The notes under the pieces: generated by a model
Told to the model about the DNA's origin: nothing
Database searches by the model: none
The model's input: the letters and a program-made list of their open reading frames with translations, nothing else
IMG/VR virus record: IMGVR_UViG_3300011008_000003
DNA: 64,000 nt
Reading direction: 5' to 3' (one strand)
Source of the DNA: a virus
Taxonomy: Duplodnaviria; Heunggongvirae; Uroviricota; Caudoviricetes
Part shown: positions 1 to 40,929 of the stretch, piece after piece
How positions within the stretch are numbered: the stretch's first letter is position 1
Layout of the letters: the number at the start of each line of letters is the position of its first letter
Made by a program: the position numbers and the translations under genes

Positions 1-47
1 TTCTGGGATTTTCAGTCCCGTCCATTCCCACGATTGGATGCCATGGC
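1..47 (-). tRNA. tRNA-Phe(GAA), 5' part, truncated by window edge
   Basis: Minus strand GCCATGG...GGGA-CTGAAAA-TCCC: anticodon stem-loop with GAA; T arm lies outside the window. Confidence 0.75.
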
Positions 48-49
48 AT

Positions 50-80
50 AAAAGAAAGGTTCCTGTTGTGCACAGGAACC
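50..80 (-). terminator. Intrinsic terminator (attenuator) directly 5' of tRNA-Phe
   Basis: GGTTCCTGT-GCACA-ACAGGAACC 9-bp stem followed by TTTCTTTT. Confidence 0.8.
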
Positions 81-110
81 GTAAATTCTTCATACTCTTA
101 GGTAATCGCT

Positions 111-218
111 TTACTTGAACCTGTGCACTGAATTGTCAATCGCAAATACACGTTCTGCAAATTCTGCAATACGTTCTGCTGCGACCGCGATGAATTCAAT
201 GTTAAAGTTCTTGTTCAT
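111..218 (-). CDS. Putative leader peptide, 35 aa, Phe/Ala-rich (MNKNFNIEFIAVAAERIAEFAERVFAIDNSVHRFK)
   Basis: Own promoter, AAAGGT upstream of ATG; GTGCACAGG (128-120) is complementary to the terminator 5' arm and loop (76-68). Confidence 0.65.
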   Translation of the reverse strand: MNKNFNIEFIAVAAERIAEFAERVFAIDNSVHRFK

Positions 219-232
219 TTTGTTACCTTTTA

Positions 233-267
233 TATTATATATAAAAATGTTTTTCCTGTTTTCGCAA
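233..267 (-). promoter_or_regulatory. Leader-type promoter TTGCGA-N18-TATATATAATA
   Basis: Same motif and spacing at 4914-4948 and 24776-24810. Confidence 0.7.
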
Positions 268-271
268 AATA

Positions 272-323
272 GATTCGGCCAATGGACTCCATCCAAAGTT
301 TTACGTTAGCGCTGCACCGAATC
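272..323 (-). ncRNA. Small hairpin RNA candidate
   Basis: GATTCGGT/GCCGAATC closing stem just downstream of promoter 348-376; no ORF. Confidence 0.3.
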
Positions 324-347
324 ATCTGATGCATCAGTTATGTTTAA

Positions 348-376
348 AATATAGTAAAAAGTTTTTGGTTTGTCAA
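348..376 (-). promoter_or_regulatory. sigma70-like early promoter TTGACA-N17-TATATT (representative of >20 copies in window)
   Basis: Same motif with 17-nt spacer at 595-623, 2876-2904, 4175-4203, 5029-5057, 22021-22049, 49354-49382 and other intergenic sites. Confidence 0.8.
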
Positions 377-401
377 CCCTCTTTTTAAAATATTTTTTTA
401 G

Positions 402-517
402 GCGGCGAGACTGGACTCGAACCAGCAACCCAAAGTACCCATTAAATAGGAATCATCGGTGCTAGAAAGCGGATAATAAAATATAAACTTTTGCTCTACC
501 ATTGAGCTACCCGCCGC
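402..517 (-). ncRNA. tRNA-like RNA with anticodon loop replaced by a 50-nt insert carrying the bulged-helix/UCCUAUU motif (family member A)
   Basis: 8-bp acceptor GCGGCGGG/CTCGCCGC, D arm TAGCTCAATGGTAGAGC, AAAGT/ACTTT stem, T arm GCTGG-TTCGAGT-CCAGT; insert 437-486. Confidence 0.8.
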
Positions 518-522
518 ATATT

Positions 523-587
523 GTTAAAGCGGAATGTAAGTAAACAATAAAGGAAGTTTTTGAATAGGAACATTCATTTGCTTTAAC
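523..587 (-). ncRNA. Bulged-helix/UCCUAUU RNA (member B)
   Basis: GTTAAAGC-AAAT-GAATGT-TCCTATT...ACATTC-C-GCTTTAAC; begins right after promoter 595-623. Confidence 0.7.
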
Positions 588-635
588 GGTTGTAAATATA
601 GTAAAGATTGTTTGGTTTGTCAACCCCCTTTTTAA

Positions 636-1241
636 TTAAAATGCGTTAAAGAATTTTCGCACTTTATCAATCCAGGTAGGAAGCGTCCAACGCTGTTCAA
701 TCTTTCGGCCATCAGGCAAGATGGTCGTTTTATAATAGGTCTTGTAATCCCAAGTTCTATGATCGTCATAATGGATTTCAGCATTATTTTCTTCATCATA
801 CTGGCGATAACTATCAGACACATAGTTTTGATTTCCTGTATGCGGATAATAAAAATTATGATATTCACGTTCGTAAATAACACGATTCTTGTCATCATAA
901 GTATAATATGTAAGAGACACGCTTTCGTCAGAACGGTTTTCATGCTTCATGTAGAAAACATGCTTAATACAGCGGTTCTTGCTGTCATATTCATTAAATT
1001 CGCGATGTAATTCTGTAATATTATTATGTACCGACACGACATATTCATGAGACAACCGGTTATTGTTTTCGTCAAATGTCGAATTAGTATAGTATGAACC
1101 GCGTTCTTCGTCCGGATAAATAACCGATGAATGAATAACATTGCCGCGTTCATCCTTAACTTCGGTACGTGTATCGGCTGGGGATACAACCTTGACACCA
1201 TTATCGATAATCGTATAGCTTTTATCGGGATTCTGCCAGTT
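636..1241 (-). CDS. Hypothetical protein with YD-like repeats (YDxxNR); start uncertain
   Basis: ORF 636-1055 stays open in frame up to 1241 without ATG; repeats FDENNN, YDSKNR, YDDKNR, YDEENN; possible 5' frameshift. Confidence 0.55.
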   Translation of the reverse strand, partial: NWQNPDKSYTIIDNGVKVVSPADTRTEVKDERGNVIHSSVIYPDEERGSYYTNSTFDENNNRLSHEYVVSVHNNITELHREFNEYDSKNRCIKHVFYMKHENRSDESVSLTYYTYDDKNRVIYEREYHNFYYPHTGNQNYVSDSYRQYDEENNAEIHYDDHRTWDYKTYYKTTILPDGRKIEQRWTLPTWIDKVRKFFNAF

Positions 1242-1445
1242 TTAAAATCAAAAAATGTGTCTGATACGATTCACGCACCTTTTTAGAAGACTTAGACACA
1301 AAATTTATAAGCCTTGAGCGGACACGTTACACCTAATACGCTCATAGCCGACCCATTCTCCAGGGTTAGGGCCTATATGTCAAGTATCATTGCGCATTGA
1401 TAATCCGGGTGAAGACTCCAGATACACATAGGACTTTTTAAAAGC

Positions 1446-1517
1446 TTGGCGGGAAGTAGACCTTCAAATTAGCATTTTGATGCTCTTACTGAGCTAAATA
1501 GGAACTTCCTATGCCAA
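1446..1517 (-). ncRNA. Bulged-helix/UCCUAUU RNA enclosing D arm + anticodon-like arm, GCT (member C)
   Basis: TTGGC-ATA-GGAAGT-TCCTATT-TAGCTCAGTAAGAGC-A-TCAAA-ATGCTAA-TTTGA-AGGTCT-ACTTCC-C-GCCAA. Confidence 0.75.
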
Positions 1518-1624
1518 AATTTTTCGGATATTAATATTTTACTATCAATATCCGGTTAGAATCACCTACAATTTATAGTTTGACGAGAACCGAATTGTTT
1601 GCTTTCTAACTGATGTTTTCGTAC

Positions 1625-1696
1625 TAGCGGGTCTTGGACTCGAACCAAGGACTTTTGGGTTATGGGCCCAAATTGCTACCACTGCATCAACCCGCG
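1625..1696 (-). tRNA. Initiator-type tRNA-Met(CAT)
   Basis: Cloverleaf, C1:T72 mismatch, GGG/CCC in anticodon stem, CAT anticodon. Confidence 0.9.
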
Positions 1697-1717
1697 TCAA
1701 AATAAACTCAAAAATAT

Positions 1718-1815
1718 GGTAAGTGGCCGACACTGTTCAAGACACGCATTCAGTTCCTCGTGCACTAGGCAGAACTCTGGAATTTACTTAGTGTCGGCCT
1801 TAAGGCACACTTACC
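1718..1815. ncRNA. ~100-nt rod-like hairpin with internal bubble
   Basis: GGTAAGTG/CACTTACC and GCCGACACT/AGTGTCGGC nested inverted repeats. Confidence 0.5.
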
Positions 1816-1860
1816 GTACCTGCAGTCTTTTCGTTTTAAGTAGAAAGAAAATATATGTAA

Positions 1861-1977
1861 AAATAAACTCAGTTGCTTTAAAGTAGAAGAACCTGAAATA
1901 ACTCGGCTGCTTTGAAGTAGAAGAGCTTTGAAATAACTCAGTTGCTTTGAAGTAGAAGAACCTGAAATAACTCAGTT
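1861..1977. repeat. Tandem repeat, 34-35 nt x ~3.4, no spacers
   Basis: Units start at 1861, 1896, 1931, 1965; consensus AAATAACTCAGTTGCTTTGAAGTAGAAGAACCTG. Confidence 0.9.
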
Positions 1978-2014
1978 TTTTGTGGAAACCTTGAAAAACC
2001 ATTTTCAAACACTC

Positions 2015-2860
2015 TGCCGGAATCCCGATTCTCCACCGGCCATGACGTCTATCAACTGCCCATTCTATCGGTCGACTTCTTATAGGGTACAAACTCCGTC
2101 ATCTAGCAATTTATTGATCGTCTAGCTATATCTTATATTAATTAAAAACTGCTTAATGGAACACTTCCGGACTTATCTATTTATATGCAACCAAGGATCC
2201 TGTCCTAAAAATGCAGCGTATAAGGCTTTTTAACCGATATAGGGGCACATGTTCTGTACTGGAACCAGCCCACGTACATATCGTCCACAAGCAGTTTTTA
2301 ATTAACATAATACTCTCTATACTCCGCCTGATATAGATTCAGTGCTTAACAGGTTCTCAATAGGAGCTACCTATACAAAAGGCTACAAACCATTTGCCTA
2401 ACATATACTTTAAATATGTCCAGTTGTTGAACCCGTCGGGCGTTATAGGTTCCGGGCGATAAACACAGCACGTTACCGGGACTTCAGAGAAAGCATTCAA
2501 TGTGTGTTCATTGATTTTCTCACGCACTTAAGTAAAACACGTTACAGTCCATATGCTTACAGGCATCCTAATTACAAGGACCGATTAAGAAGTACAACTG
2601 GTGGTTAACCCAGAATTTCTCTTCGCGCACTCTTATTTCAAGTGGCCTCACGTGGCATATTTACAGAGCCAATACTACTCCTTTGCGACCATCATTCTTA
2701 AATCCATAATTCGCAAAGTCAGATTCCTCATCCCAGAGTTTTCCCCATCTGGGTTAGCCCGCTAGCATGAACATGAATGGTGCAACACGGGTTCTCCTCA
2801 CATATAGACTATACTCAATTTCGTTCTTTCAATCTACTGAAACACTCGCTGGTGTTTCAA
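2015..2860 (-). ncRNA. Large structured non-coding region (one large or several ncRNAs)
   Basis: No credible ORF; promoter at 2876-2904; 17-bp perfect IR 2138-2154/2289-2305; 8-bp IR 2420-2427/2594-2601; many local hairpins. Confidence 0.55.
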
Positions 2861-2926
2861 TCATTTACGTCTTATAATATAGTAAATGTTCTTGTGTTCG
2901 TCAACCCTTTTTTATAAAAAAATTTT

Positions 2927-3457
2927 TTATGCCAGGATTATAAGCTCTGCAAGTCTGCGACATGGTTCAGGAATATCCTTACGCTTCAGAAGCATTTCAC
3001 AGACATTCTGATACATTCTCTTCTTTGCATTTTCCTTTGGTTGGTCCCAAGAATTATAAACCATATCGGCAAGCTTAATCAACAAAGCATCCTTCGAAAT
3101 CGAACACAGCTTTTCGGTCATATATTCGGTCTTACCGAGTTGGTCAATGATATGACGGTTATTTGTCAATTCCAAAACCAGTTCTGCTACTTCTTCGCTA
3201 CCAGAAATGACTGCGATTTCTTCATAAGACGTATCAGTATCTTCCAAAAGGTCATGACCGAAGGCGGCGTTAATCTGGTCGATTGTTCCACCATATTTCT
3301 TGACAAGCCAAGCGACTCCGCGAGGATGAACGAAATACGGCATTCCGCTGCCCTTACGAGCCGCATGTGCATGCCTACCCTTCGCAAAGTAATACATGGC
3401 TCGACATTCTACAGGAAAATCCTGCGATTTGGATTTCTTAAACATTGCGCTAAACAT
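2927..3457 (-). CDS. HD-domain (p)ppGpp hydrolase-like protein (Mesh1/small alarmone hydrolase)
   Basis: H...RKGSGMPYFVHP, GHDLLEDT, LIKLAD..YN motifs of the RelA/SpoT hydrolase domain; AAGGAG RBS before 3457. Confidence 0.85.
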   Translation of the reverse strand: MFSAMFKKSKSQDFPVECRAMYYFAKGRHAHAARKGSGMPYFVHPRGVAWLVKKYGGTIDQINAAFGHDLLEDTDTSYEEIAVISGSEEVAELVLELTNNRHIIDQLGKTEYMTEKLCSISKDALLIKLADMVYNSWDQPKENAKKRMYQNVCEMLLKRKDIPEPCRRLAELIILA

Positions 3458-3693
3458 TAATTGCTCCTTGGTTATATAAAACAATATAGAAAAGGGCTGA
3501 CGTTCTGTCAACCCTTTTTCATAAAATAAACGGCGGGAGATTCATTTAGGTGATAAAGTAGCTATCTCTAACACCCATCGCAATTAGACATCAGCACACT
3601 ATCATATGTACACTCAAATAGCATACTGTAATAATCAAAGAAAAACCCTAAGAAACGGTCATGCGATGTATTGTTACCATTAGATGGTTTTAG

Positions 3694-3766
3694 CGCTGGT
3701 GGAGGGATCCGAACCCCCGACCGGCTGATTACAAATCAGCTGCTCTACCTGCTGAGCTACACCAGC
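3694..3766 (-). tRNA. tRNA-Thr(TGT)
   Basis: Canonical cloverleaf, loop TT-TGT-AA. Confidence 0.93.
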
Positions 3767-3782
3767 AAAAGGTGATATATAT

Positions 3783-3917
3783 GGTGATTAACCCACTAAC
3801 GGACTATATCTGCCGGATAAGGTATGTACTAACGCCTCGTTACCTCTATCAGAACCATCGCTTCGTGATGTAAGGCGAATCAAAACTTGGGTTCCTTACA
3901 CGCTTTTGGAAATCACC
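3783..3917 (-). ncRNA. Structured RNA candidate with possible pseudoknot
   Basis: GGTGATT/AATCACC closing stem, TGTAAGG/CCTTACA stem whose loop AACCCA can pair with downstream TGGGTT. Confidence 0.4.
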
Positions 3918-3995
3918 CACGAAGAATAAGTCTCCATTGTCTGCATGAAATCCCACTTTCATGTATTTACTGTTGTATGACTTTAGACTATTTTA

Positions 3996-4069
3996 TCGGA
4001 GTAGCCAGATTCGAACTGACGACATTCTGCTCCCAAAGCAGACGCTCTACCAGACTGAGCTACACTCCG
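3996..4069 (-). tRNA. tRNA-Pro(TGG)
   Basis: Canonical cloverleaf, C1-G72, A73, loop TT-TGG-GA. Confidence 0.93.
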
Positions 4070-4080
4070 GAAATTTTTAG

Positions 4081-4160
4081 CTGTTCCACCTGGACTCGAA
4101 CCAGGGACCAGGGACCAAGCGATTAACAGTCGCTCGCTCTACCAACTGAGCTATGGAACA
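4081..4160 (-). tRNA. tRNA-Asn(GTT) with 7-nt duplication (TGGTCCC) in variable region
   Basis: Cloverleaf, loop CT-GTT-AA, G73; TGGTCCC-TGGTCCC-TGG before T loop. Confidence 0.85.
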
Positions 4161-4223
4161 ATCTTGTATTAACAAATATAGCAATTAATGTTCTACTTGT
4201 CAACCCATAAAATAATTTTTTCG

Positions 4224-4299
4224 CGCCTGGTGAGAGATTCGAACTCCCGACCGGATGATTACTAAACATCTGCTCTAAAGCCAGCTGAGCTAACCAGGC
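4224..4299 (-). tRNA. tRNA-Thr(AGT)
   Basis: Cloverleaf GCCTGGT/ACCAGGC, loop TT-AGT-AA, T:T at base of anticodon loop. Confidence 0.85.
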
Positions 4300-4306
4300 A
4301 AAAATT

Positions 4307-4376
4307 TGGCGGGTCGTAAAACCTTTTGATTACCAATCAACTGCTCATCTGAGCTAAATAGGAACGACCTATGCCA
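4307..4376 (-). ncRNA. Bulged-helix/UCCUAUU RNA enclosing D arm + Thr(GGT) anticodon arm (member D)
   Basis: TGGC-ATA-GGTCGT-TCCTATT-TAGCTCAGATGAGC-A-GTTGA-TTGGTAA-TCAAA-AGGTTTT-ACGACC-C-GCCA; no T arm. Confidence 0.78.
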
Positions 4377-4379
4377 TTA

Positions 4380-4462
4380 TCAGGGTAGCAGGATTCGAAC
4401 CTGCGATGTCACGAGGACGCTAGCTCCCGAAGCTAGTGGCAAACCAACCTGCCGCTACCCTG
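4380..4462 (-). tRNA. tRNA-Pro(CGG) with long variable arm
   Basis: CAGGGTA/TACCCTG, A73, loop TT-CGG-GA, 15-nt variable region CGTCCTCGTGACATC. Confidence 0.85.
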
Positions 4463-4476
4463 TTTTAATTTGTTCG

Positions 4477-4549
4477 TCAGAGTGGCTGGGCTCGAACCAG
4501 CGACCCCTCGCATCCTAGGCGAGCTCTCTACCAACTGAGTTACACTCTG
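4477..4549 (-). tRNA. tRNA-Pro(AGG)
   Basis: CAGAGTG/CACTCTG, A73, loop CT-AGG-AT. Confidence 0.85.
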
Positions 4550-4552
4550 ATA

Positions 4553-4604
4553 AAGTCACTACTTGGACAACTGGCGGAAAGTACGCACGCTCCGTGAGTG
4601 ACTT
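4553..4604 (-). ncRNA. Small hairpin element between tRNAs
   Basis: AAGTCACT/AGTGACTT 8-bp closing stem with inner CGGA/TCCG. Confidence 0.3.
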
Positions 4605-4606
4605 AG

Positions 4607-4681
4607 CTCCAAGGGAAGGATTCGAACCTCCGAAATCTGACACGTTAACAGCGTGCTGGCATACCGCTTGCCGACCCTGGA
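4607..4681 (-). tRNA. tRNA-Asn(GTT)
   Basis: TCCAGGG/CCTTGGA, G73, loop CT-GTT-AA; atypical D arm and 8-nt variable loop. Confidence 0.85.
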
Positions 4682-4690
4682 ATAAATTAG

Positions 4691-4763
4691 CTGGGAAGGA
4701 GGGATTCGAACCCCCAACATAGTGGTTAACAGCCACCCGTTCTACCATTAGAACTACGACCCA
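4691..4763 (-). tRNA. tRNA-Asn(GTT), two acceptor-stem mismatches
   Basis: TGGGTCG/CTTCCCA, loop CT-GTT-AA, canonical T arm. Confidence 0.82.
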
Positions 4764-4769
4764 ATGTAT

Positions 4770-4805
4770 AAAAAAGAAATCCTGTATGGTTTCAATCATA
4801 CAGGA
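4770..4805 (-). terminator. Intrinsic terminator (attenuator) directly 5' of the Asn-Asn-Pro-Pro-Thr tRNA run
   Basis: TCCTGTATG-N8-CATACAGGA 9-bp stem + TTTCTTTTTT. Confidence 0.85.
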
Positions 4806-4835
4806 CTTATCAAAAAAATCGGTATATGAAGAAAC

Positions 4836-4898
4836 CTAATCCAAAAGCACTCCTGGATTCGTCGGATTAGTATTATTTGTGTTCTTCATAAAAGTCAT
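4836..4898 (-). CDS. Putative leader peptide, 20 aa, MTFMKNTNNTNPTNPGVLLD
   Basis: Translated by hand; 5 Asn, 4 Thr, 2 Pro; alternative 1:2, 2:3 and 3:4 pairings. Confidence 0.75.
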   Translation of the reverse strand: MTFMKNTNNTNPTNPGVLLD

Positions 4899-4913
4899 TT
4901 TCTTATCTCTTTA

Positions 4914-4948
4914 TATTATATATAAAAGTTTTTTCCTGTTTTTCGCAA
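4914..4948 (-). promoter_or_regulatory. Leader-type promoter TTGCGA-N18-TATATATAATA
   Basis: Near-identical to 233-267. Confidence 0.7.
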
Positions 4949-4952
4949 AAAT

Positions 4953-5013
4953 AAACAGCGGGCAGTAAGAACCATAAACCAAAGGAGTAAAATAGGAACT
5001 GCGTATGCTGTTT
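4953..5013 (-). ncRNA. Bulged-helix/UCCUAUU RNA with anti-SD-like loop (member E)
   Basis: AAACAGC-ATA-CGCAGT-TCCTATT-TTACTCCTTTGGTTTATGGTTCTT-ACTGCC-C-GCTGTTT; just downstream of promoter 5029-5057. Confidence 0.72.
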
Positions 5014-5063
5014 TGTTTTACATGTTATAATATAGTAAATGTTTTTGTGTTTGTCAACCCTTT

Positions 5064-5603
5064 TTAATCAACTTTTTTAACATTTTTTATTTCGACTTGT
5101 TTTGCAAAATATTCAAACATTTCGATTGCCGCTTGAGGATATTCTTTCGGATAATTCCTGGACCAGTTATAGAAAACAAGCTGAAGCATTTTTGTCAAAT
5201 GTTTGCTATTAATAAATTCTACATTGGTCAAATAAGAAATCATCTGCGTAATATCATTTTGGGTGGTTCCGACATCATCTGTTATCTTACGATAGACATT
5301 AAACATTTTCTGCCGTACCGATACGACATATTTCTTATACTTGTTCAGATAATATCTTAAAGTAAACATATAGTTTACGTATTCATATTTATCTTTACCG
5401 TAGAAAATTGTCGCTGACGATTTCAAGTTTCGTGAAATATGCAAGATAGCGACTTTCTTTCCGTTAATGTCGCATCTTACATAGTAATCGCCAGGATATG
5501 CATTCTTCGTCTCAATCGAATATTCAGACTGATATTCGACAAATTCACAATCTTTACCGAGAACTTCGGTACAGGTTTTTCTAAAAGAATCGGGCGTAAT
5601 CAT
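5064..5603 (-). CDS. Hypothetical protein
   Basis: ORF in co-oriented gene run. Confidence 0.7.
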   Translation of the reverse strand: MITPDSFRKTCTEVLGKDCEFVEYQSEYSIETKNAYPGDYYVRCDINGKKVAILHISRNLKSSATIFYGKDKYEYVNYMFTLRYYLNKYKKYVVSVRQKMFNVYRKITDDVGTTQNDITQMISYLTNVEFINSKHLTKMLQLVFYNWSRNYPKEYPQAAIEMFEYFAKQVEIKNVKKVD

Positions 5604-5606
5604 AGT

Positions 5607-5921
5607 TTATGTTCTTCCAAAATATTCAAAATATCTTTTCATACAGTTAGTAAGTCTTTTCTGAGTACCTTTACTTACCTCCTCATAAGACTTTAACTGT
5701 GCTTCTTTTATTTTTTTACGATTGACAATAAGATCTCCAATAGATTCGACTATCATCCAACCAATAGCTATCGCAATGATAATAGGACCAAGAAGAATAC
5801 AAATTCCTTCTGAAACTATTTTTTCAGCAATATTGTCAAATTTACAAGTCTTATCCGGAATAATAATACATGCCATTATAATGGTAGAAATAATACAGTA
5901 AACTATTAATGCGGTCAACAT
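5607..5921 (-). CDS. Hypothetical membrane protein
   Basis: Two hydrophobic segments. Confidence 0.65.
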   Translation of the reverse strand: MLTALIVYCIISTIIMACIIIPDKTCKFDNIAEKIVSEGICILLGPIIIAIAIGWMIVESIGDLIVNRKKIKEAQLKSYEEVSKGTQKRLTNCMKRYFEYFGRT

Positions 5922-5924
5922 ATT

Positions 5925-6254
5925 TTATTTCTCATAATTATTCACACTGATGTTTCTTACGTCACAATAACGAAAAACTTTAATCTGGTGCGGATCATGT
6001 TTATTATAAAATCTATTTGTACCGCCGAAACCAAAAACATCTTCTCGTTCCCAATCCTTCATAGAAAGTAATTCACAACGATTACCGCTGTATTTGGGAC
6101 AAATCTGATATGTATCTGGTTCAGGTGCAGGTTCATGATAATATATGATACCGCATATAGGGCTTACTATAAGTATTGAACAGATATAAACAACTTTCCA
6201 TTCAGAAAAATGCTTAATGACTGGTCTGAAAAGACGGTACAAATAGTTTTTCAT
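5925..6254 (-). CDS. Hypothetical membrane-anchored protein
   Basis: One hydrophobic segment. Confidence 0.6.
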   Translation of the reverse strand: MKNYLYRLFRPVIKHFSEWKVVYICSILIVSPICGIIYYHEPAPEPDTYQICPKYSGNRCELLSMKDWEREDVFGFGGTNRFYNKHDPHQIKVFRYCDVRNISVNNYEK

Positions 6255-6745: not shown

Positions 6746-7783
6746 CTACCAACCCTTGATAGATAACTTAAACAAGTCCCTAATATTTTCTGTTCCGTCG
6801 AAGCTATGCCTCATATCGAGCGGAGCCGTACTCATTCGGCAAACCTTCATAGTTGGAACGTCGATAAACATAGTACAGCATGTAATATTGTACATATCAT
6901 CCTTAACCTTCGTATCAGAGCCTTGATACAGAGTATTCCATGTACTATCGTTTACGCCCATAAGAGATTGAGGCTTGACCTGTTCAATTCCTAAATCGTC
7001 AAATGAAATAGTATTGAATTCAAATGCAAGAATAGGCAAAGACTTCTTGAGCCATTCGATATTCTTGTTTATCGACATAAATTCTTTCTGTAGATGGTCA
7101 TGACCGCGACGAAGATTCTTATATCCAAGGACGATAATCTTCCTATTACGGACAAACGGAATATCGGCTTCGTTGAACAGTCCGGCAATCACATGAATAA
7201 TTACATTCGAACCGAGCATATCGATAATTTTCATATCGTCCGTATTCGAAGAATCTGTCATGGAAACGCCGATACCGTTGACTAGTTTTTCATTTACCAG
7301 TTTCAGTAACAAATCCTTATTCCTGGCAAGATGTTTCTGGTTTACGGTAATATTGGAAATAACGCCCTGCTTTTTCAGAAGTTCAAGGAACCAAACCAAA
7401 TCAGGATGTTCAAAGATATTCCCGCCGCCGATTGCGACTTCAGTACCAGGCTGCAAAGTCTTAATCATCGGTTCAATCTGTCGAAGATTTCCATTCACGC
7501 CTTTTACGGTAGAATTCTCGTGGCAATAGATACAGCCACCGTCACAGCGGTCGGTAATCTTTATGTCGAAATTCTCAGGAAATTCATAAGTCAGATGGTC
7601 TGTTTCTACATCAACCCAACGATTTACACGTTTGCTGTCTGGACCTATTTCATTGATATAATATCCGGTTTCCTTAACTTTCGTACCGTCCGCATAAAGG
7701 ATCGTACGGTGATTGCCATTTACATAACTTCCGACAATTTCTTTATTGTCTGTAAAAATTTTTATCGCTTCGTCTTGTTTCAT
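6746..7783 (-). CDS. Radical SAM protein
   Basis: CDGGCIYC (CxxxCxxC), AIGGGN...HP motif. Confidence 0.9.
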   Translation of the reverse strand: MKQDEAIKIFTDNKEIVGSYVNGNHRTILYADGTKVKETGYYINEIGPDSKRVNRWVDVETDHLTYEFPENFDIKITDRCDGGCIYCHENSTVKGVNGNLRQIEPMIKTLQPGTEVAIGGGNIFEHPDLVWFLELLKKQGVISNITVNQKHLARNKDLLLKLVNEKLVNGIGVSMTDSSNTDDMKIIDMLGSNVIIHVIAGLFNEADIPFVRNRKIIVLGYKNLRRGHDHLQKEFMSINKNIEWLKKSLPILAFEFNTISFDDLGIEQVKPQSLMGVNDSTWNTLYQGSDTKVKDDMYNITCCTMFIDVPTMKVCRMSTAPLDMRHSFDGTENIRDLFKLSIKGW

Positions 7784-20140: not shown

Positions 20141-21277
20141 CTATCCATCTAGATCCGCCTTGTCAAATGTGTGATAGTTCTTAAATAGCTTCTTGAATTC
20201 ACTTTCTCGGTCCATTTCGTCACAATGAGTGATTTCCAGGACTTGAGACGAAATACCGGGTACCTTATTAAGTTTATAGTCGTTATCGATACGATTCTTA
20301 AGCTCATTAAGGTCGAGATAACCATATTTGAAATCTCCCTGGAACTTATTACGGTGATTCATCAAATCGTCCTTAATATCGCCAGAAATTTCACTACGTT
20401 TCGTTTCGTCGAACTGACCTGCGCCGTGTCTGGTCAAATACGGCCGTGTAACATAATGAACAGTCAAGTCGTTAATGAAATACAAATCTTTAGAATCGAC
20501 TGCGCCGATACCTGTAACAGACGGCGTAGTATGTACATTATCCGGATCGTCATTCAAAAGAAGTCCTTGTCCGTTTTCGAAAATATATTCGTCGAAATCA
20601 CCAGGAACATTGACAGTAAACTTCACATGGTCAAACATGAACTTACAATCGTCGATAAAATGTTCCATCAAGCCGTCGCTCTCCCAAATTTCTCGTTCTT
20701 CCTTGGTCATTTCGAACTTAGGAGCATACCCAGCGAAAGAATCGAAATATTTGGTATTGAAGTAACTGCGGACATACTTGAGATATGTCTTCTGGTTAGT
20801 CGGAAATGTCCTTGCGAATTCTTCGAAACCGAGAATATAATTCTTGGAACAACGGAGAACTGTTTCCCAAATGCCCATACCACAAGAACCGTGTTCTTCG
20901 TGATACTTCTGACGATTCTCTTCAATAATCTGGTTAGCCAAAATATCGTACGGAGTAGTCCAGCGGCAGAACCTGTGCATGTATATTTGCGGCATAGGCA
21001 GCTTTTTGGCCAGTTCTTTGTATTCCTTGACGAACTGCATGGGATTTACAATGAAGTCCTTAGAGAAGAACGTAGACGCGCCGTAACACGTTCCAGAACC
21101 GAAGTGCTTGAACGTAAACACTTCACCGTTTTTAACGACAGTATGACCACGTTGAGGACCGCCATTGGTAAGGATATTCAGAACCTTACCGTTAGCGTTT
21201 TTCGTATAATGGGCTATGACCGTGCCTTTTCCTTCGTCGCCCCAGTTGGAACCGATAATAATTCTACCCTTCGTCAT
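20141..21277 (-). CDS. purA: Adenylosuccinate synthetase-like protein (divergent)
   Basis: WGDEGKG, NGGPQRGHT, HGSCGMG, ENGQG, TRHGAG. Confidence 0.85.
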   Translation of the reverse strand: MTKGRIIIGSNWGDEGKGTVIAHYTKNANGKVLNILTNGGPQRGHTVVKNGEVFTFKHFGSGTCYGASTFFSKDFIVNPMQFVKEYKELAKKLPMPQIYMHRFCRWTTPYDILANQIIEENRQKYHEEHGSCGMGIWETVLRCSKNYILGFEEFARTFPTNQKTYLKYVRSYFNTKYFDSFAGYAPKFEMTKEEREIWESDGLMEHFIDDCKFMFDHVKFTVNVPGDFDEYIFENGQGLLLNDDPDNVHTTPSVTGIGAVDSKDLYFINDLTVHYVTRPYLTRHGAGQFDETKRSEISGDIKDDLMNHRNKFQGDFKYGYLDLNELKNRIDNDYKLNKVPGISSQVLEITHCDEMDRESEFKKLFKNYHTFDKADLDG

Positions 21278-22014
21278 CGCCTTCGAGTTCTCCGATTGAT
21301 AAGATTGTTTTGATATAGTTAAATGCTGCGAAGATAATGTCTTCGTTATTGCCAAAATTGTTAAATTCTTTGCCGTTTATTATGATACATTTTGGTCTGC
21401 TACGTGAAATATAGGAAGTAAATGTTCTAAATTCAACGGCATCATTTACAATATCAAGATAACCAATAATATAAGCATGGTCGGCAATATCTGTTCGACA
21501 GTAGACCACATTATTGAAATCGTTGACAATTTCCCAAGAATCACCGAATATTTTTACATTCAAATTCAATTTTGCTAGTCCAACCAATTTTTCCTGATTG
21601 TCTGTTGCCCATTGGACTGCATCACTATGGCCAAGTTTATAAAGATTGTCATACATTTTCGTTCAAGCTCTCTAAAGATAAAACAACATCGAGATAGTTA
21701 ATGGCGATTCTGACTTTATCGGCAGAATCAGTCTTGAAAGACTTGCCTGCGATAACCATGAATTCCGGTTGATATACAAACGGATAACTGCAGTACATTC
21801 TAAAATCGCCATCTTTATTGAAATAACCGATTCTTAATTCGCCTTCATCGCGAATGGTTGCAATAACGTTATTAAAAATCTGATACTTTCTTTTAGTCTT
21901 TCCGATAGTAACAGAAATAGGATGCTTAACCCTGTTGTAGATTTCACTTTCAGTTAATCCGAAAACAGTTTTAATCTGATCCATGTAGAATTTAGTAAGA
22001 TTGATTTTAGCCAT
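21264..22014 (-). CDS. Two tandem paralogous hypothetical proteins (21264-21656, 21649-22014)
   Basis: Shared IGY...FR...SY...IxGKxF...AxNY...LS pattern. Confidence 0.6.
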
Positions 22015-30000: not shown

Positions 30001-31275
30001 TTAGACAACAGTCATGCTACCTTTCCATTGGTCAAGCGGAATATAATCGAATACCTGCTTAACGTAGTCAACATAAGTAGGAGATTCGCACATATTCTTT
30101 TCAGGACAATCGCTCAACTTAACGACATCCTTGCCATTGACCTTGACAACCTTCATAACCATGGACAACGGCTTAATACCAGCAGTAGCAGTTACAAGAT
30201 TTGCCATGAAATAAGTACCGATACCGAAGCTAATCTTGATACGGCCGTTGAAATGCTGAGCAATCTTAATTGCCTTATCAACGTCGAGAGAATCAGACCA
30301 GCAACCAGTCTTGGTAGTCGGGTCAATACCGAGTGCCTTATAATGGGCAATCAGCATTTCGCCCCAGACAAACGGGTCACCGCTATCGTGACGGCATCCG
30401 TCGAACAGCTTCGCATAGAACTTATCGAAGTCGCGAAGGAACGGGATAAAGCCGAAATTGTCAGACAACGCGATACCAAGATCGCCACGATATTCCTGTG
30501 TCCATGCGTCGAACACTGCCTTCTGAGACTGGCGAATAGGAACGTCGTCAAGTCCCTGGAACAAAGCATACATTTCGTGTGCAAACGTTCCAATTGCCTT
30601 TACGCCATATTTAATAGCGAAATAAAGGTTAGACGTTCCGACAAAGCACTTGCAATGCTTGGCCATGTAACCAACTGCATAGTCTTGCCATGCAAAGGAA
30701 TGACGACGGCGTGCACCAAAGTCAGCGAAACCGAACTTCAAACCAGAATCGATAGCAGCGTTAAACTTATCAACTGCATCTTTAAGATTTTGCTTTGCCT
30801 TGTCAAAATCAAATTCAAACTGGCGGAGATAAAGTTCCTGGATAATTTCCATCACATAGATTTCAAACCATGTGACTTTGAGCTGTGGACCTTCTGCTTC
30901 GATTTCAAGATCGTCACCACGGCGAGTAATCTTGATGTACTTTCTCTTAAGACGGAAATCTTCAAGCCAATCAACGTAATCCGGCTTAATATAATAAATC
31001 TTGGAAAGAGCATTAAGCTCAAAAGGCTGCCAGCGAAGTGTACAAAGATGGTCGACTTCACGATTTACTGCATCGACAAGATAACCAAGATGAACGTCTT
31101 TAGAACGAAGCTTCCATTTCCACTTAGCCCATTCATTCGGTCGCTTATGAAGCAAACATTGTGTCATACTGACCTTGTAAATGTCAGTGTCACTCAAGTA
31201 ATTGATAATATACTTATCTTCATCGAGTGGTTTATAGTTCTTGATTTCTTCAATTTCTTTTTGAGAAAGTTCCAT
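30001..31275 (-). CDS. pncB: Nicotinate phosphoribosyltransferase
   Basis: DTDIYK, DFGARRRHS, GTSN, GTFAHE, RHDSGDP, SFGIGT, KLSD. Confidence 0.93.
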   Translation of the reverse strand: MELSQKEIEEIKNYKPLDEDKYIINYLSDTDIYKVSMTQCLLHKRPNEWAKWKWKLRSKDVHLGYLVDAVNREVDHLCTLRWQPFELNALSKIYYIKPDYVDWLEDFRLKRKYIKITRRGDDLEIEAEGPQLKVTWFEIYVMEIIQELYLRQFEFDFDKAKQNLKDAVDKFNAAIDSGLKFGFADFGARRRHSFAWQDYAVGYMAKHCKCFVGTSNLYFAIKYGVKAIGTFAHEMYALFQGLDDVPIRQSQKAVFDAWTQEYRGDLGIALSDNFGFIPFLRDFDKFYAKLFDGCRHDSGDPFVWGEMLIAHYKALGIDPTTKTGCWSDSLDVDKAIKIAQHFNGRIKISFGIGTYFMANLVTATAGIKPLSMVMKVVKVNGKDVVKLSDCPEKNMCESPTYVDYVKQVFDYIPLDQWKGSMTVV

Positions 31276-33841: not shown

Positions 33842-35161
33842 CTACCTCAGAGTTAAAAATTTCTTATAACATCTAAATGCACTCAGAATATCGTCGACAT
33901 GTGTAAGTTCCATCGGCGAATGCATGTTCAGAACCGGAACACCAGCATCGATAACGTTCATGTTGAATCGACAATAGATACTGGCGATAGTTCCACCACC
34001 ACCCATATCAACCTTACCCATTTCATCGAATTGATAAAGTTCATTTTTGAATAAGTTACGAAGCTTTGCGATATATTCAGGCATTGCGTCGTTAGAACCG
34101 GACTTACCATGAGAGCCATTATATTTACTGAGCATCATGCCGTAACCGAGCTTGGCAGAAGTATGTTTGGAATAAGCGTCGGCATAAAGTGGGTCAAAAG
34201 CTGCCGTAACGTCAGAAGACAACATATTAGATTTAGACATGACGTCAAAGAAATCCATGTCGATTGTATTTCGGTCTTCACGCTGACTATACATCTTCTT
34301 GAGACAAGTTTCAAACCAAACAGATTCTGCACCGGTAGCACTATAAGAACCGATTTCTTCTTTATCGACAAGAACCGTACATGCAGTATTGTCAGGAATA
34401 TCTGTTGTTTCCAAAATAGCTTTAAGGGAAGTAAAAGCACAAACTCGGTCGTCTTGTCCATAACCAGCGACTAAAGACATGTCTAAACCGCAATATGAAG
34501 CTTTTCCTGCCGGAACAAGTTCGAATTCAGAAGAATAGAAATCATCTTCATCAATATCATACTTGTTTTTTAAAATTGACAGAAGTTTTTCCTTAACAGC
34601 ACATTTTTCTTTGTCAAAAACTTCTTTATCACACTTGCTAGCGACAGCTGCGATAACGTCCATGTTTTCACCATTGACAAAATCTTCAGCCTTCTTGCTT
34701 GACATACGCTTATAATCAAGGTGCGGAAGCAAGTCAGTAATACAGAAAACCGGATCTCCTGGATTATCACCGATATTAACATTGATTGTTGTTCCGTTCG
34801 GTTTACAAACAACGCCGTGAAGTGCGAGCGGTAAAGTAACCCATTGATACTTTTTGATTCCGCCATAATAATGAGTATCAAAATATGCGACATCATCTTT
34901 ATCAGTAAGAGCGGCTTGCTTTATGTCGATACGGGGAGAGTCAATATGTGCACCGAGAATATTATATTCTGGATTTTTACCAACAATAAATGCGGCAAAA
35001 TTCTTACGTCTGTTTATGAAATAAACCTTATCTCCAGGTTTATATTTTCTGTTAGCTTCAAAAGATTTAAATCCTGCAGCAACAGCTTTTCGTTCAGCAA
35101 AATCTACCCATTCGCGTTCAGTCTTATTTTGAGAAAGGGCTTCAATGTATTCATTAGTCAT
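33842..35161 (-). CDS. M18-family aminopeptidase
   Basis: GAHIDSPR, YYGGIKKYQW, GQDDR, DKEEIGS, GGGTI, MHSP.E. Confidence 0.92.
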   Translation of the reverse strand: MTNEYIEALSQNKTEREWVDFAERKAVAAGFKSFEANRKYKPGDKVYFINRRKNFAAFIVGKNPEYNILGAHIDSPRIDIKQAALTDKDDVAYFDTHYYGGIKKYQWVTLPLALHGVVCKPNGTTINVNIGDNPGDPVFCITDLLPHLDYKRMSSKKAEDFVNGENMDVIAAVASKCDKEVFDKEKCAVKEKLLSILKNKYDIDEDDFYSSEFELVPAGKASYCGLDMSLVAGYGQDDRVCAFTSLKAILETTDIPDNTACTVLVDKEEIGSYSATGAESVWFETCLKKMYSQREDRNTIDMDFFDVMSKSNMLSSDVTAAFDPLYADAYSKHTSAKLGYGMMLSKYNGSHGKSGSNDAMPEYIAKLRNLFKNELYQFDEMGKVDMGGGGTIASIYCRFNMNVIDAGVPVLNMHSPMELTHVDDILSAFRCYKKFLTLR

Positions 35162-39109: not shown

Positions 39110-40216
39110 TTATTCATTATCCATTTTCTCGAGAGCGTCCTTAATAATCATTTCGTGATGGAAACCCATTTTCGGAAGATTATCAAGTTTGAACCAACGA
39201 GTATCGGCTGCGTCGTCACCCGCGAAAGCAAGCTTCTTTTCCTTGCCAGTTACATGGACGAGGAACGCAGTATCGATAATACGGAGGCGCGGGTCGAACA
39301 TATGGCTGTAAGTACGAATCTGCTTGAACTTATGAACAGGAATATCCAGATGAGTTTCTTCGCGGAGTTCACGAGCTGCGGCATGTTCGAGGTCTTCGTC
39401 AGCCTTTACGTTCTTACCAGTTTCCTTGTCGACAATATCAATCGGATCAAAGAAACCGCCACAGCAGCACCAGTAATTCTGGAAAGGAGGTTTCTTACGA
39501 CGGATAAGCAAGACTTCATCGCCACAGATAGGAACGTTGTCGACAGTATTAGCGAACTTGCCCCATCCCTGCTTCTTGTAATTTTCGATAAATGCCTTTT
39601 CAATCTTATCGTAATCCAAAGGATTCTGATGATACAGCGAATGTTCCTTAATATAATGGAAAACGTTCTTGCTGATATGGTCCTGGACCAGCTTATAATG
39701 ACATTCCGGATCCATTTCAAATGCCTGACGAACATAGCTACTGGAAACATCCTGAACCTTATCGCTCAGTTCCATAAACGTATAGTCGTAGGAATCGGTA
39801 GTATACTTCTTCTGCCAATCCTTTTCGCTTCCCTTACGGGTAAAGATGATAAACTTGTAGTATTTCAAAAGACGCTTGGAGAACTTCCACTTGTCGGCAA
39901 GCAAGCTAGCCCATTCGTCTTCGCCGATAACAATAGTAATGTCCTTCGGGTCGACTGTTCTGAAATTTACAGAAATAAATTCATACATTCGGTTATTCTG
40001 CTTATACAGCTCGTACTTCTTGATATTACGAGCGGCAAGAGCATTACGAACCATATTGCAACGTTCTTCAACCGAAGTACGATTTTTCTTTTCATCATTA
40101 TCGGTTACGAGGATATGGAACTTATCATTCTGGCGAAGCTTCTTATGGATCGTCTTGATAATTTCTTCGTGTGCATGAGTAAACGGGTCAAACCAGCTTC
40201 CAAAAATATAATGCAT
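39110..40216 (-). CDS. Nucleotidyltransferase (NadD/NadM-like)-Nudix hydrolase fusion
   Basis: FDPFTHAH, VIGED, VSSSYVR; Nudix box AAARELREET, DPRLR, AGDDA. Confidence 0.88.
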   Translation of the reverse strand: MHYIFGSWFDPFTHAHEEIIKTIHKKLRQNDKFHILVTDNDEKKNRTSVEERCNMVRNALAARNIKKYELYKQNNRMYEFISVNFRTVDPKDITIVIGEDEWASLLADKWKFSKRLLKYYKFIIFTRKGSEKDWQKKYTTDSYDYTFMELSDKVQDVSSSYVRQAFEMDPECHYKLVQDHISKNVFHYIKEHSLYHQNPLDYDKIEKAFIENYKKQGWGKFANTVDNVPICGDEVLLIRRKKPPFQNYWCCCGGFFDPIDIVDKETGKNVKADEDLEHAAARELREETHLDIPVHKFKQIRTYSHMFDPRLRIIDTAFLVHVTGKEKKLAFAGDDAADTRWFKLDNLPKMGFHHEMIIKDALEKMDNE

Positions 40217-40929
40217 AGAAACATCCTTTATGTTTTTATTAAATATAGAAAAAGGCTGACTCGTCGTCAACCCTTTATATTTTAGTTGATAAAATTAATT
40301 CTCAGTAGATTCGAAGAATAGTTTTGTAAAATTGTCGCCGTCCTCGGCATATACAAATTTAAAATCATATTCTTTTACGAAATCGAAATCAGATATAACA
40401 TCTTTCTGCTTTTCGATTTTCGGAAAACAGAACTGTTTAAATCTGGTAATCTGACGAGAAGCGCCGATTGTACCTTCGGCTTCATCTACTATCGAGAATT
40501 TCTTTGTTTTCTTATCAAATTTAACTTCGACCATAAATCCTCCGTTTAATCTGGTAATGAGTTAATTGCTTCTTCTACTCTCTCATTTTTATATTCAATA
40601 TACTCTTTTTTGATAAATGAAAAGAAATCTGTCTTAGGCTGCTTTGCTATATATAACATTATCAACTGAGGCAATGTAGTTTTATACATACCGTTAGTAA
40701 GGTCATTTTCCTGTTCAAACTTAATAATTTCGTCAATATCAGTAGATACGTCTTTACCGTCTTCACCGATTGATGTAAAAATTGAAGTTAAAGGAAAATA
40801 ATGGGTCTCATTGTCAATAGATATTACTATTGACTTAGTACGAAGTTCCACAAAAAGTATAGTTTTGGTTTTTTCGAGGTTTATACAACCTAACCCATCA
40901 GTACCACTAACATATGTCAAAATCAACAT

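Follow-up and report, generated by a model that had tools for sequence, protein, structure and literature searches.

A likely leader-peptide attenuator in front of a tRNA operon in rumen megaphage DNA

What is a short open reading frame (ORF) followed by a terminator doing between a promoter and the tRNA genes of a phage? The question is raised by the first 376 positions of IMG/VR record IMGVR_UViG_3300011008_000003, a 64,000-nucleotide (nt) stretch of Caudoviricetes DNA (the window, by which we mean the whole of this stretch), where the minus strand carries a promoter, a 35-codon leader ORF, an intrinsic terminator and the start of a tRNA-like element (Table 1). In our view this unit is likely to gate a phage tRNA operon by ribosome-mediated, leader-peptide attenuation of transcription. 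We read it as attenuation in the style of trp and his that responds to the supply of tRNA, with which the phage probably makes the tRNAs of the block only when ribosomes lack them. Computation establishes the parts of the unit, its alternative pairings, the match between leader codons and tRNAs, and the co-evolution of the two.

The genes that the unit would control lie past position 1, in sequence that is taken from relatives only, at best 94-97% identical; L048 (96.9% identity over window 1-1232) is nearest to the window, followed by L042 (94.4%). L042 has the same leader, terminator and first tRNA-like element as the window. Its array runs on for 1.55 kb past that element, with 13 further genes called as tRNAs, and closes at a terminator-promoter pair; over the 1.55 kb that separate the leader terminator of L042 from the next one, no strong promoter was found. 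A preliminary description, made from the letters of the window, had a tRNA-Phe(GAA) following the terminator. The terminator and the GAA loop stand, whereas the complete first element of L042 (11626-11554), with a CUGAAAA anticodon loop, a good T arm and two acceptor-stem mismatches, stays below the tRNA threshold (23.7 bits against a Rfam gathering score of 29, and no ARAGORN call); in L001 a canonical tRNA-Phe(GAA) takes its place. The element at 47-1 is the first gene of the regulated array. The same description had foreseen tRNAs for Ala(TGC), Glu(TTC), Arg(ACG) or Ile beyond the window edge, and in relatives Ala(TGC), Glu(TTC) and Ile(GAT)-type genes are indeed there, accompanied by Phe(GAA), Glu(CTC), Ala(GGC), Val(GAC) and Val(TAC), whereas Arg(ACG) sits in the Asp/Lys/Gly/His operon of relatives. 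The tRNA arrays of these phages hold many redundant copies of one isoacceptor, divergent in sequence.

The leader ORF mirrors this block. Its composition was given correctly in the preliminary description (5 Phe, 6 Ala, 4 Glu, 4 Ile and 4 Asn), and 22 of the 34 codons after the ATG are decoded by the block's Phe, Glu, Ala, Val and Ile tRNAs, 20 of these 22 lying within codons 5-27. The unit is one of a set: six paralogous leader classes occur in the rumen megaphage family (contigs up to 424 kb), and their blocks, including that of the Phe class described here, together supply all 20 amino acids. In every class the terminator stem begins 24-30 nt past the stop codon. We scored five of the six classes, with codon counts made by wobble rules. 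The fraction of a leader served by its own block is 0.52-0.69; other blocks serve no more than 0.41 of it when amino acids are counted and no more than 0.22 when codons are. The true assignment of leaders to blocks is the best of 120 permutations; binomial P values against the protein composition of the window run from 7e-5 (the window Phe leader) to 9e-8. The regulatory codons are thus enriched and cognate to what the operon supplies, which here is tRNA and not amino acid.

The correspondence reaches synonymous codons. Serine is written only as AGY in Leu-class leaders (4/4 and 5/5), whose block has Ser-GCT, and mostly as UCN in Tyr-class leaders (6/7 and 4/4), whose blocks have Ser-AGA/TGA or Ser-GGA/TGA/CGA. 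Lysine is AAG in the Asp class, except for one AAA in L010, beside a Lys-CTT gene, and AAA in three of four cases in the Gln/Lys/Arg class, beside Lys-TTT. Arginine codons split likewise, CGN in one class and AGA in another, and isoleucine is AUY in all four cases in the window Phe leader and AUA in the Gln class. Because the synonymous codons split as the isoacceptors do, the local tRNAs would be what is sensed; neither an amino-acid sensor nor a functional peptide has any need of such a split. Codon choice of this kind would show that the design targets tRNA species and not amino acids.

Leaders and blocks also change together. In a second Phe-class subfamily (e.g. L038, L047 and L065) the blocks are without Val or Ile tRNAs, and the Ile and Val of the leader are replaced by extra Ala, Phe and Glu; in the first subfamily Val tRNAs are present in 7/8 blocks. 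L006 has a Val(TAC) tRNA in its Asn/Thr/Pro block and five Val codons, four of them GUA, in the leader of that block, against one Val codon in the Asn leader of the window. These events are few and the sequences related; the co-changes are of the type that the attenuator model would lead one to expect.

The description of the Phe unit as an independent instance of the design, with unrelated sequences, has to be given up. The Phe unit is paralogous to the Asn unit and to four more classes. All have in common the promoter type and a conserved 5' untranslated region (UTR) ending in TTTTATATATAATATAAA, and the Phe, Asp and Asn classes also a UCCUGU/ACAGGA terminator core. The promoter is, as had been noticed, of the same type as those of other units: it recurs at four further window sites (5057-5029, 4203-4175, 3511-3483 and 623-595) and is also found before other tRNA units, of relatives as well as of the window. 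The conserved part of the 5' UTR (269-226) consists of an A-rich stretch, TTTTATATATAATATAAA and AAAGG and is common to the leader classes matched by motif, the sixth class having a diverged variant of the TTTTATATATAATATAAA element; the motif has two exact occurrences in the window, against 0.5 expected at three or fewer mismatches. Upstream of it, at about 335-272 on the minus strand, lies a variable insert closed by a stem GATTCGG/CCGAATC. It is missing in L001 and in one rumen RNA-library contig, where the joint skips 264-344, so the distance from promoter to leader differs among strains.

Scans with exact and degenerate patterns recovered this leader from contigs of IMG/VR and JGI; some of these contigs are 165-424 kb long and filed as viral. 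The unit is conserved across 13 distinct sequences from many metagenomes. In all 13 the ORF is intact, every internal indel being 3 or 6 nt, and GGTAA in the Shine-Dalgarno (SD) region is unchanged (13/13). Both antiterminator strands and the SD/AUG region are among the best-conserved stretches of the alignment. One of these antiterminator strands is coding, and its codons are conserved even at third positions, while the peptide as a whole is rewritten between the two Phe-class subfamilies with its richness in Phe, Ala and Glu retained.

The leader has the layout of leader-peptide attenuators: the promoter is followed by an ORF that has a ribosome-binding site, and an intrinsic terminator separates this ORF from the first regulated gene. 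The RNA from 232 to 48 folds at -55.8 kcal/mol (z = -5.66 against shuffles) into a long intra-ORF hairpin (210-193/134-117), a helix between the SD region and the bases after the stop codon (228-223/105-100), and the terminator. Near the ORF end GUGCACAGG (128-120) is, as previously reported, an exact 9-nt complement of CCUGUGCAC (76-68). The strongest duplex that the ORF end can form with the 5' arm and loop of the terminator reaches -18.8 kcal/mol (z = -4.6), a value attained by none of 200 shuffles; the isolated terminator hairpin, at -14.6 kcal/mol, is weaker. In the 13 distinct Phe-class sequences the nine antiterminator pairs and the terminator stem are 100% paired, with three one-sided G-U changes in the former. 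The RNAalifold consensus of the class is the antiterminator helix; it additionally pairs the SD region with the 3' arm and U-run of the terminator, which we treat as unavoidable complementarity of AAAGG and CCUUU. The ACAGGAA of the 5' UTR was considered as a second partner of the terminator arm and dropped; the Leu and Tyr classes and L001 do not have it.

Support from covariation comes from comparison between classes and from the Asp and Leu classes. Of five classes, four have an ORF end that pairs more strongly with the terminator of its own class (-14 to -18 kcal/mol) than with those of other classes (-4 to -14), and the shuffle z-scores of the class antiterminators range from -1.6 to -4.8. 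In the Asp class a terminator-loop base co-varies with the ORF end (G-C in L001, G-U in L009 and A-U in L015), and in the Leu class GUGGGAAC/GUUCCCAC is replaced by GUAGGGAC/GUUCCUAC, a G-C pair turned A-U. Both classes have an equivalent of the helix between the SD and post-stop regions, in other sequences.

Table 1. Parts of the leader unit in the window, related leader classes, and the tRNA block of L042
Feature	Position	Strand	Details
Sigma-70-like promoter	348..376	(-)	-35 TTGACA 376-371, -10 TATATT 353-348, 17-nt spacer; 11/12 consensus positions; transcription start probably near 341
5' UTR, ~120 nt	219..340	(-)	between the putative start and the leader ORF
SD-like AAAGG	226..230	(-)	7 nt upstream of ATG
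Leader ORF	111..218	(-)	ATG 218-216, stop 113-111; 35 codons + stop
Segment 1, 5' strand of long intra-ORF hairpin	193..210	(-)	minimum free energy helices 210-205, 201-193
Segment 2, partner of segment 1	117..134	(-)	pairs via 134-126, 122-117
Segment 2 core GUGCACAGG, antiterminator 5' strand	128-120	(-)	in codons 31-33
Post-stop UUACCU, anti-SD	100..105	(-)	pairs with SD region 228-223 in the finished leader RNA
Segment 3 CCUGUGCAC, terminator 5' arm + loop, antiterminator 3' strand	68..76	(-)	
Intrinsic terminator	48..80	(-)	G+C-rich 9-bp stem 80-72/66-58, 5-nt loop 71-67
Terminator T-run TTTCTTTTAT	57-48	(-)	directly after the stem
tRNA-like element, 5' part	1..47	(-)	anticodon loop CUGAAAA (GAA, Phe); truncated at the window edge
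Asn/Thr/Pro class leader	window 4898-4836	(-)	then Asn, Pro, Thr tRNAs
Asp/Lys/Gly/His/Arg class leader	L001 6305-6204		then Asp, Lys(CTT), Gly, His; Arg(ACG) in some relatives
Leu/Ser/Trp/Cys class leader	L004, before tRNA-Trp at 7451		then Trp, six Leu, Cys, Ser(GCT)
Tyr/Ser/Met class leader	L004, before tRNA-Tyr at 4917		then Tyr, Met, Ser(AGA, TGA)
Gln/Lys/Ile/Arg class leader	L004 2322-2245		then Gln, Lys(TTT), Arg(TCT, CCT)
Phe-class tRNA block	L042, after the first element		in order: Glu(TTC), Ala(TGC), Glu(TTC), Ala(GGC), Phe(GAA), Ala, Ala, Phe-like gene, Phe(GAA), Glu(CTC), Glu(TTC), Val(GAC), Val(TAC), two elements with CUGAUAA loop (L056 counterparts are tRNA-Ile(GAT) by ARAGORN)

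How a ribosome on the leader would bear on these pairings was simulated with a 28-nt ribosome mask placed at each A-site codon of a transcript ended just before the 3' arm of the terminator. The probability of the antiterminator is 0.31 without a ribosome, 0.95-1.0 with the A site at codons 2-16 or 22-27, and 0.00 with the A site at codons 28-36, the stop included. The antiterminator is mutually exclusive with the terminator, its 5' strand is covered by a ribosome at the stop, and the pairing of segments 1 and 2 acts, in silico, as an anti-antiterminator that gives termination without translation. This reproduces the earlier proposal that a ribosome at the stop masks 128-120 and one stalled earlier frees it. 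The permissive zone coincides with the in-block codons, and the masking zone holds mostly codons that the block does not serve.

The sequence of events would then be as follows. Transcription would start from the promoter, and a ribosome would load at AAAGG/AUG and translate the leader behind the moving RNA polymerase. Were the Phe, Ile, Glu, Ala and Val codons at 5-27 read fast, it would reach codons 28-36 and cover GUGCACAGG; the hairpin at 80-58 with its U-run would form, and transcription would end 3 nt short of the first tRNA. Were the matching aminoacyl-tRNAs scarce, reading would be slow and the ribosome would stall on the 5' half of the intra-ORF hairpin, leaving segment 2 free to pair with the emerging 76-68, and the polymerase would enter the roughly 1.5-kb block of Phe, Glu, Ala, Val and Ile-type tRNAs. 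With no ribosome at all, the intra-ORF hairpin would sequester segment 2 and termination would dominate.

Several observations weigh against this account. Translation of the leader, stalling and read-through are steps that we infer, and the coupling of transcription to translation in the host is assumed. Twelve of the 34 codons are outside the reach of the block, including 4 Asn, 3 Arg and 2 Lys, and one Phe codon (codon 34) falls in the masking zone. L001 has the same leader, yet its block yielded no call for a Val or Ile tRNA. With the A site at codons 17-21 the simple model gives an antiterminator probability of only about 0.3. In full-length RNA at equilibrium the terminator is favoured even under a ribosome mask (P = 0.74-1.0); equilibrium folds of the masked full-length leader always gave the terminator, and a thermodynamic switch was rejected. 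Since equilibrium favours the terminator, kinetics must decide, as is the usual view of classical attenuators. Compensatory double changes are absent from the Phe-class helices among the 13 distinct sequences, in which only one-sided G-U changes occur. Asn-class leaders lack a significant antiterminator (z = -0.5 and -0.7), and for that class the attenuator model is not established. The Asn/Thr/Pro leader in the window, with 11/19 codons matching its tRNAs and a terminator at 4808-4777, may switch by another route.

The ORF might instead encode a real small protein, probably helical, whose mRNA ends at the hairpin, the tRNAs being transcribed by incidental read-through or from elsewhere. Its conservation and its in-frame indels would suit such a protein, and a comparable small ORF of phage phiCbK, gp083, is annotated as a hypothetical protein. 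However, conservation is strongest at the level of the RNA, third positions of the antiterminator codons included, and the peptide is freely rewritten between subfamilies so long as it stays rich in Phe, Ala and Glu. The 35-residue peptide has no Pfam match, and the block behind the L042 terminator has no strong promoter of its own. A coding role would leave unexplained why six ORFs mirror their adjacent tRNAs down to isoacceptor-specific synonymous codons, and why Val codons move with Val tRNAs; we regard it as very unlikely. Mere chance, with an ORF that arose by accident between promoter and insulating terminator, is harder still to credit. A 35-codon ORF in 230 nt is not rare by itself, and covariation within the class is weak, but the codon match of this leader (P = 7e-5), the best of 120 permutations over five classes, a complement and a fold that shuffling does not reproduce (0/200; z = -5.66) and a unit conserved in 13 distinct sequences speak against it.

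Two other proposals keep a regulatory ribosome and differ in what it senses or controls. The leader might sense amino-acid starvation through uncharged tRNA, as classical attenuators do, and raise tRNA output when the host starves. A stalled ribosome reports the aminoacyl-tRNA ternary complex, which is set by both charging and tRNA level, and the mechanism would otherwise be the same. Extra tRNA, however, gives no relief of an amino-acid shortage, and the block-specific choice among synonymous Ser, Lys, Arg and Ile codons to match the local isoacceptor would be pointless for an amino-acid sensor, so we think this version unlikely. Alternatively, the position of the ribosome could govern the processing or stability of the tRNA precursor, through access of RNase III, E or P, or Rho-dependent termination. 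The hairpin ends 10 nt from the 5' end of the tRNA, so that RNase P would cut immediately beside it. Comparison of window 1-6000 with assembled contigs from four rumen metatranscriptome runs, which carry no information on ends, strand or level, gave one RNA-library contig (579 nt, depth 9.3) that covers window 1-253 and 203 nt past position 1, bridging leader and terminator; it could be read-through RNA or DNA carry-over. Such contigs are silent on transcripts and their ends, all classes have the G+C-rich stem and immediate T-run that are the signature of an intrinsic terminator, and the alternative helix overlaps exactly the 5' arm of that terminator. We give control by processing or by Rho only a slight probability. 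The attenuator design, by comparison, is supported by the computational tests run.

The six leaders may go further and jointly form an isoacceptor-resolved supply-demand controller, in which only the matching block of replacement tRNAs is switched on. By continuous test translation the phage would probe which tRNAs are lacking in the infected cell, for example after the action of host anticodon nucleases or after tRNA degradation. We put this forward tentatively and hold it to be rather doubtful; if true, it would be the first case known in which tRNA synthesis is regulated by sensing tRNA availability, and would amount to a counter-defence circuit.

A megablast of window 1-5000 against cultured phages returned a tRNA-Pro as the sole match, and contigs of sheep-gut metatranscriptomes match the window at 90-99% identity; we read the window as rumen megaphage DNA. 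Its auxiliary metabolic genes encode an adenylosuccinate-synthetase-like protein (20141-21355), a nicotinate phosphoribosyltransferase (30001-31275), an M18 aminopeptidase (33842-35161) and a fusion of a cytidylyltransferase-like (NMN adenylyltransferase) domain with NUDIX (39110-40270). The first two and the fusion, with the HD_4 gene described next, make up a typical giant-phage auxiliary set. A 194-residue HD_4-domain protein is encoded between tRNA operons (2927-3511, minus strand), and the promoter of its gene is embedded in a terminator hairpin (3518-3490). The HD_4 fold is one known from (p)ppGpp hydrolases, and the position and promoter of the gene suggest a link between stringent-response control and tRNA supply. 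In contigs of two sheep-gut metatranscriptomes window 1240-3444 stands at a word depth of 115-278, against 5-10 on its flanks, and window 1700-2900 is without an ORF of more than 100 residues on either strand and without a Rfam match; 1240-3444 may be an abundant large non-coding RNA adjoining the tRNA genes.

Some of the tRNA genes themselves are odd. Two with A34 (4476-4549 and 4223-4299, minus strand) are Pro(AGG) and Thr(AGT), which is unusual in bacteria. The tRNA at 402-516 (minus strand; Rfam 49.3 bits) has an insertion of about 43 nt in its anticodon loop, its own TTGACA-17-TATATT promoter (623-595) and an upstream 17-codon ORF rich in Pro and Leu (572-519), with no terminator between that ORF and the tRNA; one RNA contig holds a variant of this tRNA with a different insert. 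The motif GTTCCTAT is repeated before odd tRNA-like or hairpin elements within tRNA operons (window ~4360, ~5000 and ~560; L001 ~6040 and ~6455).

A leader-peptide attenuator before a tRNA operon would amount to feedback, in which the speed of translation on chosen codons would set the synthesis of the cognate tRNAs. As far as we found, the logic of attenuation is known only for amino-acid, synthetase and resistance genes, and a literature search, with subscription journals mostly outside its coverage, found no description of leader-peptide control of tRNA genes. The unit addresses two open questions, how phage tRNA genes are regulated and why some phages carry dozens of them. It also offers an annotation rule for giant-phage genomes, to look for a small ORF whose codons mirror the tRNAs behind it, and, for synthetic biology, a sensor of decoding capacity that is compact and modular. 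Phage tRNA arrays are seen as an answer to the depletion or cleavage of host tRNAs, and the large redundant sets described here, with several copies per isoacceptor, resemble those on which such accounts rest; to our knowledge the accounts concern the role of the tRNAs and none proposes demand-sensing control of their transcription. With a leader of this kind the idea that phage tRNAs counter host tRNA depletion becomes directly testable.

Among known systems the closest are the multivalent attenuators of enterobacteria, the ilvGMEDA leader with its Ile, Leu and Val codons and the thr leader with Thr and Ile, alongside trpL, hisL, pheL and leuL. The phage unit shares with them a short leader ORF with an SD sequence, clustered regulatory codons for several amino acids, and the succession of a 1:2 anti-antiterminator, a 2:3 antiterminator and a 3:4 intrinsic terminator, in which a ribosome at the stop hides segment 2 and untranslated RNA terminates (here in silico). 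It differs in standing before tRNA genes and not biosynthetic enzymes, in leader codons that match the downstream anticodons even among synonymous codons, and in being a phage element present in six paralogous copies for 20 amino acids. The T-box is likewise a transcription attenuator that chooses between terminator and antiterminator in response to the state of a particular tRNA, but it binds uncharged tRNA directly, has no ORF and controls synthetase and amino-acid genes, whereas the phage sensor would be a translated ORF. A cmscan of window 1-6000 against Rfam (E <= 1) matched no leader family (Trp, His, Leu, Thr or Phe) and no T-box, giving tRNAs and, well under the gathering score of the family, a single weak hit to YrlA (Y RNA-like; E = 0.044). 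A further likeness is found in Caulobacter phage phiCbK (JX100813; L068). There gp083 (2141-2278) has 45 codons, of which 24 of the 44 after Met are Ser, Leu, Pro or Lys, and is followed by an annotated 'predicted rho-independent terminator' and then by Pro, Pro, Lys, Lys, three Leu and two Ser tRNAs. At 3940-4040 lies an unannotated frame of 32 codons, rich in Gln, Val, Ile and Phe, whose end is 25 nt short of an annotated terminator; Phe, Val, Ile, Ile, Val, Gln and Gln tRNAs come next. phiCbK infects a host of another phylum, differs in G+C content, has no sequence similarity to the window and carries no regulatory annotation at these sites; with this comparable layout the cultivable phiCbK offers a laboratory system.

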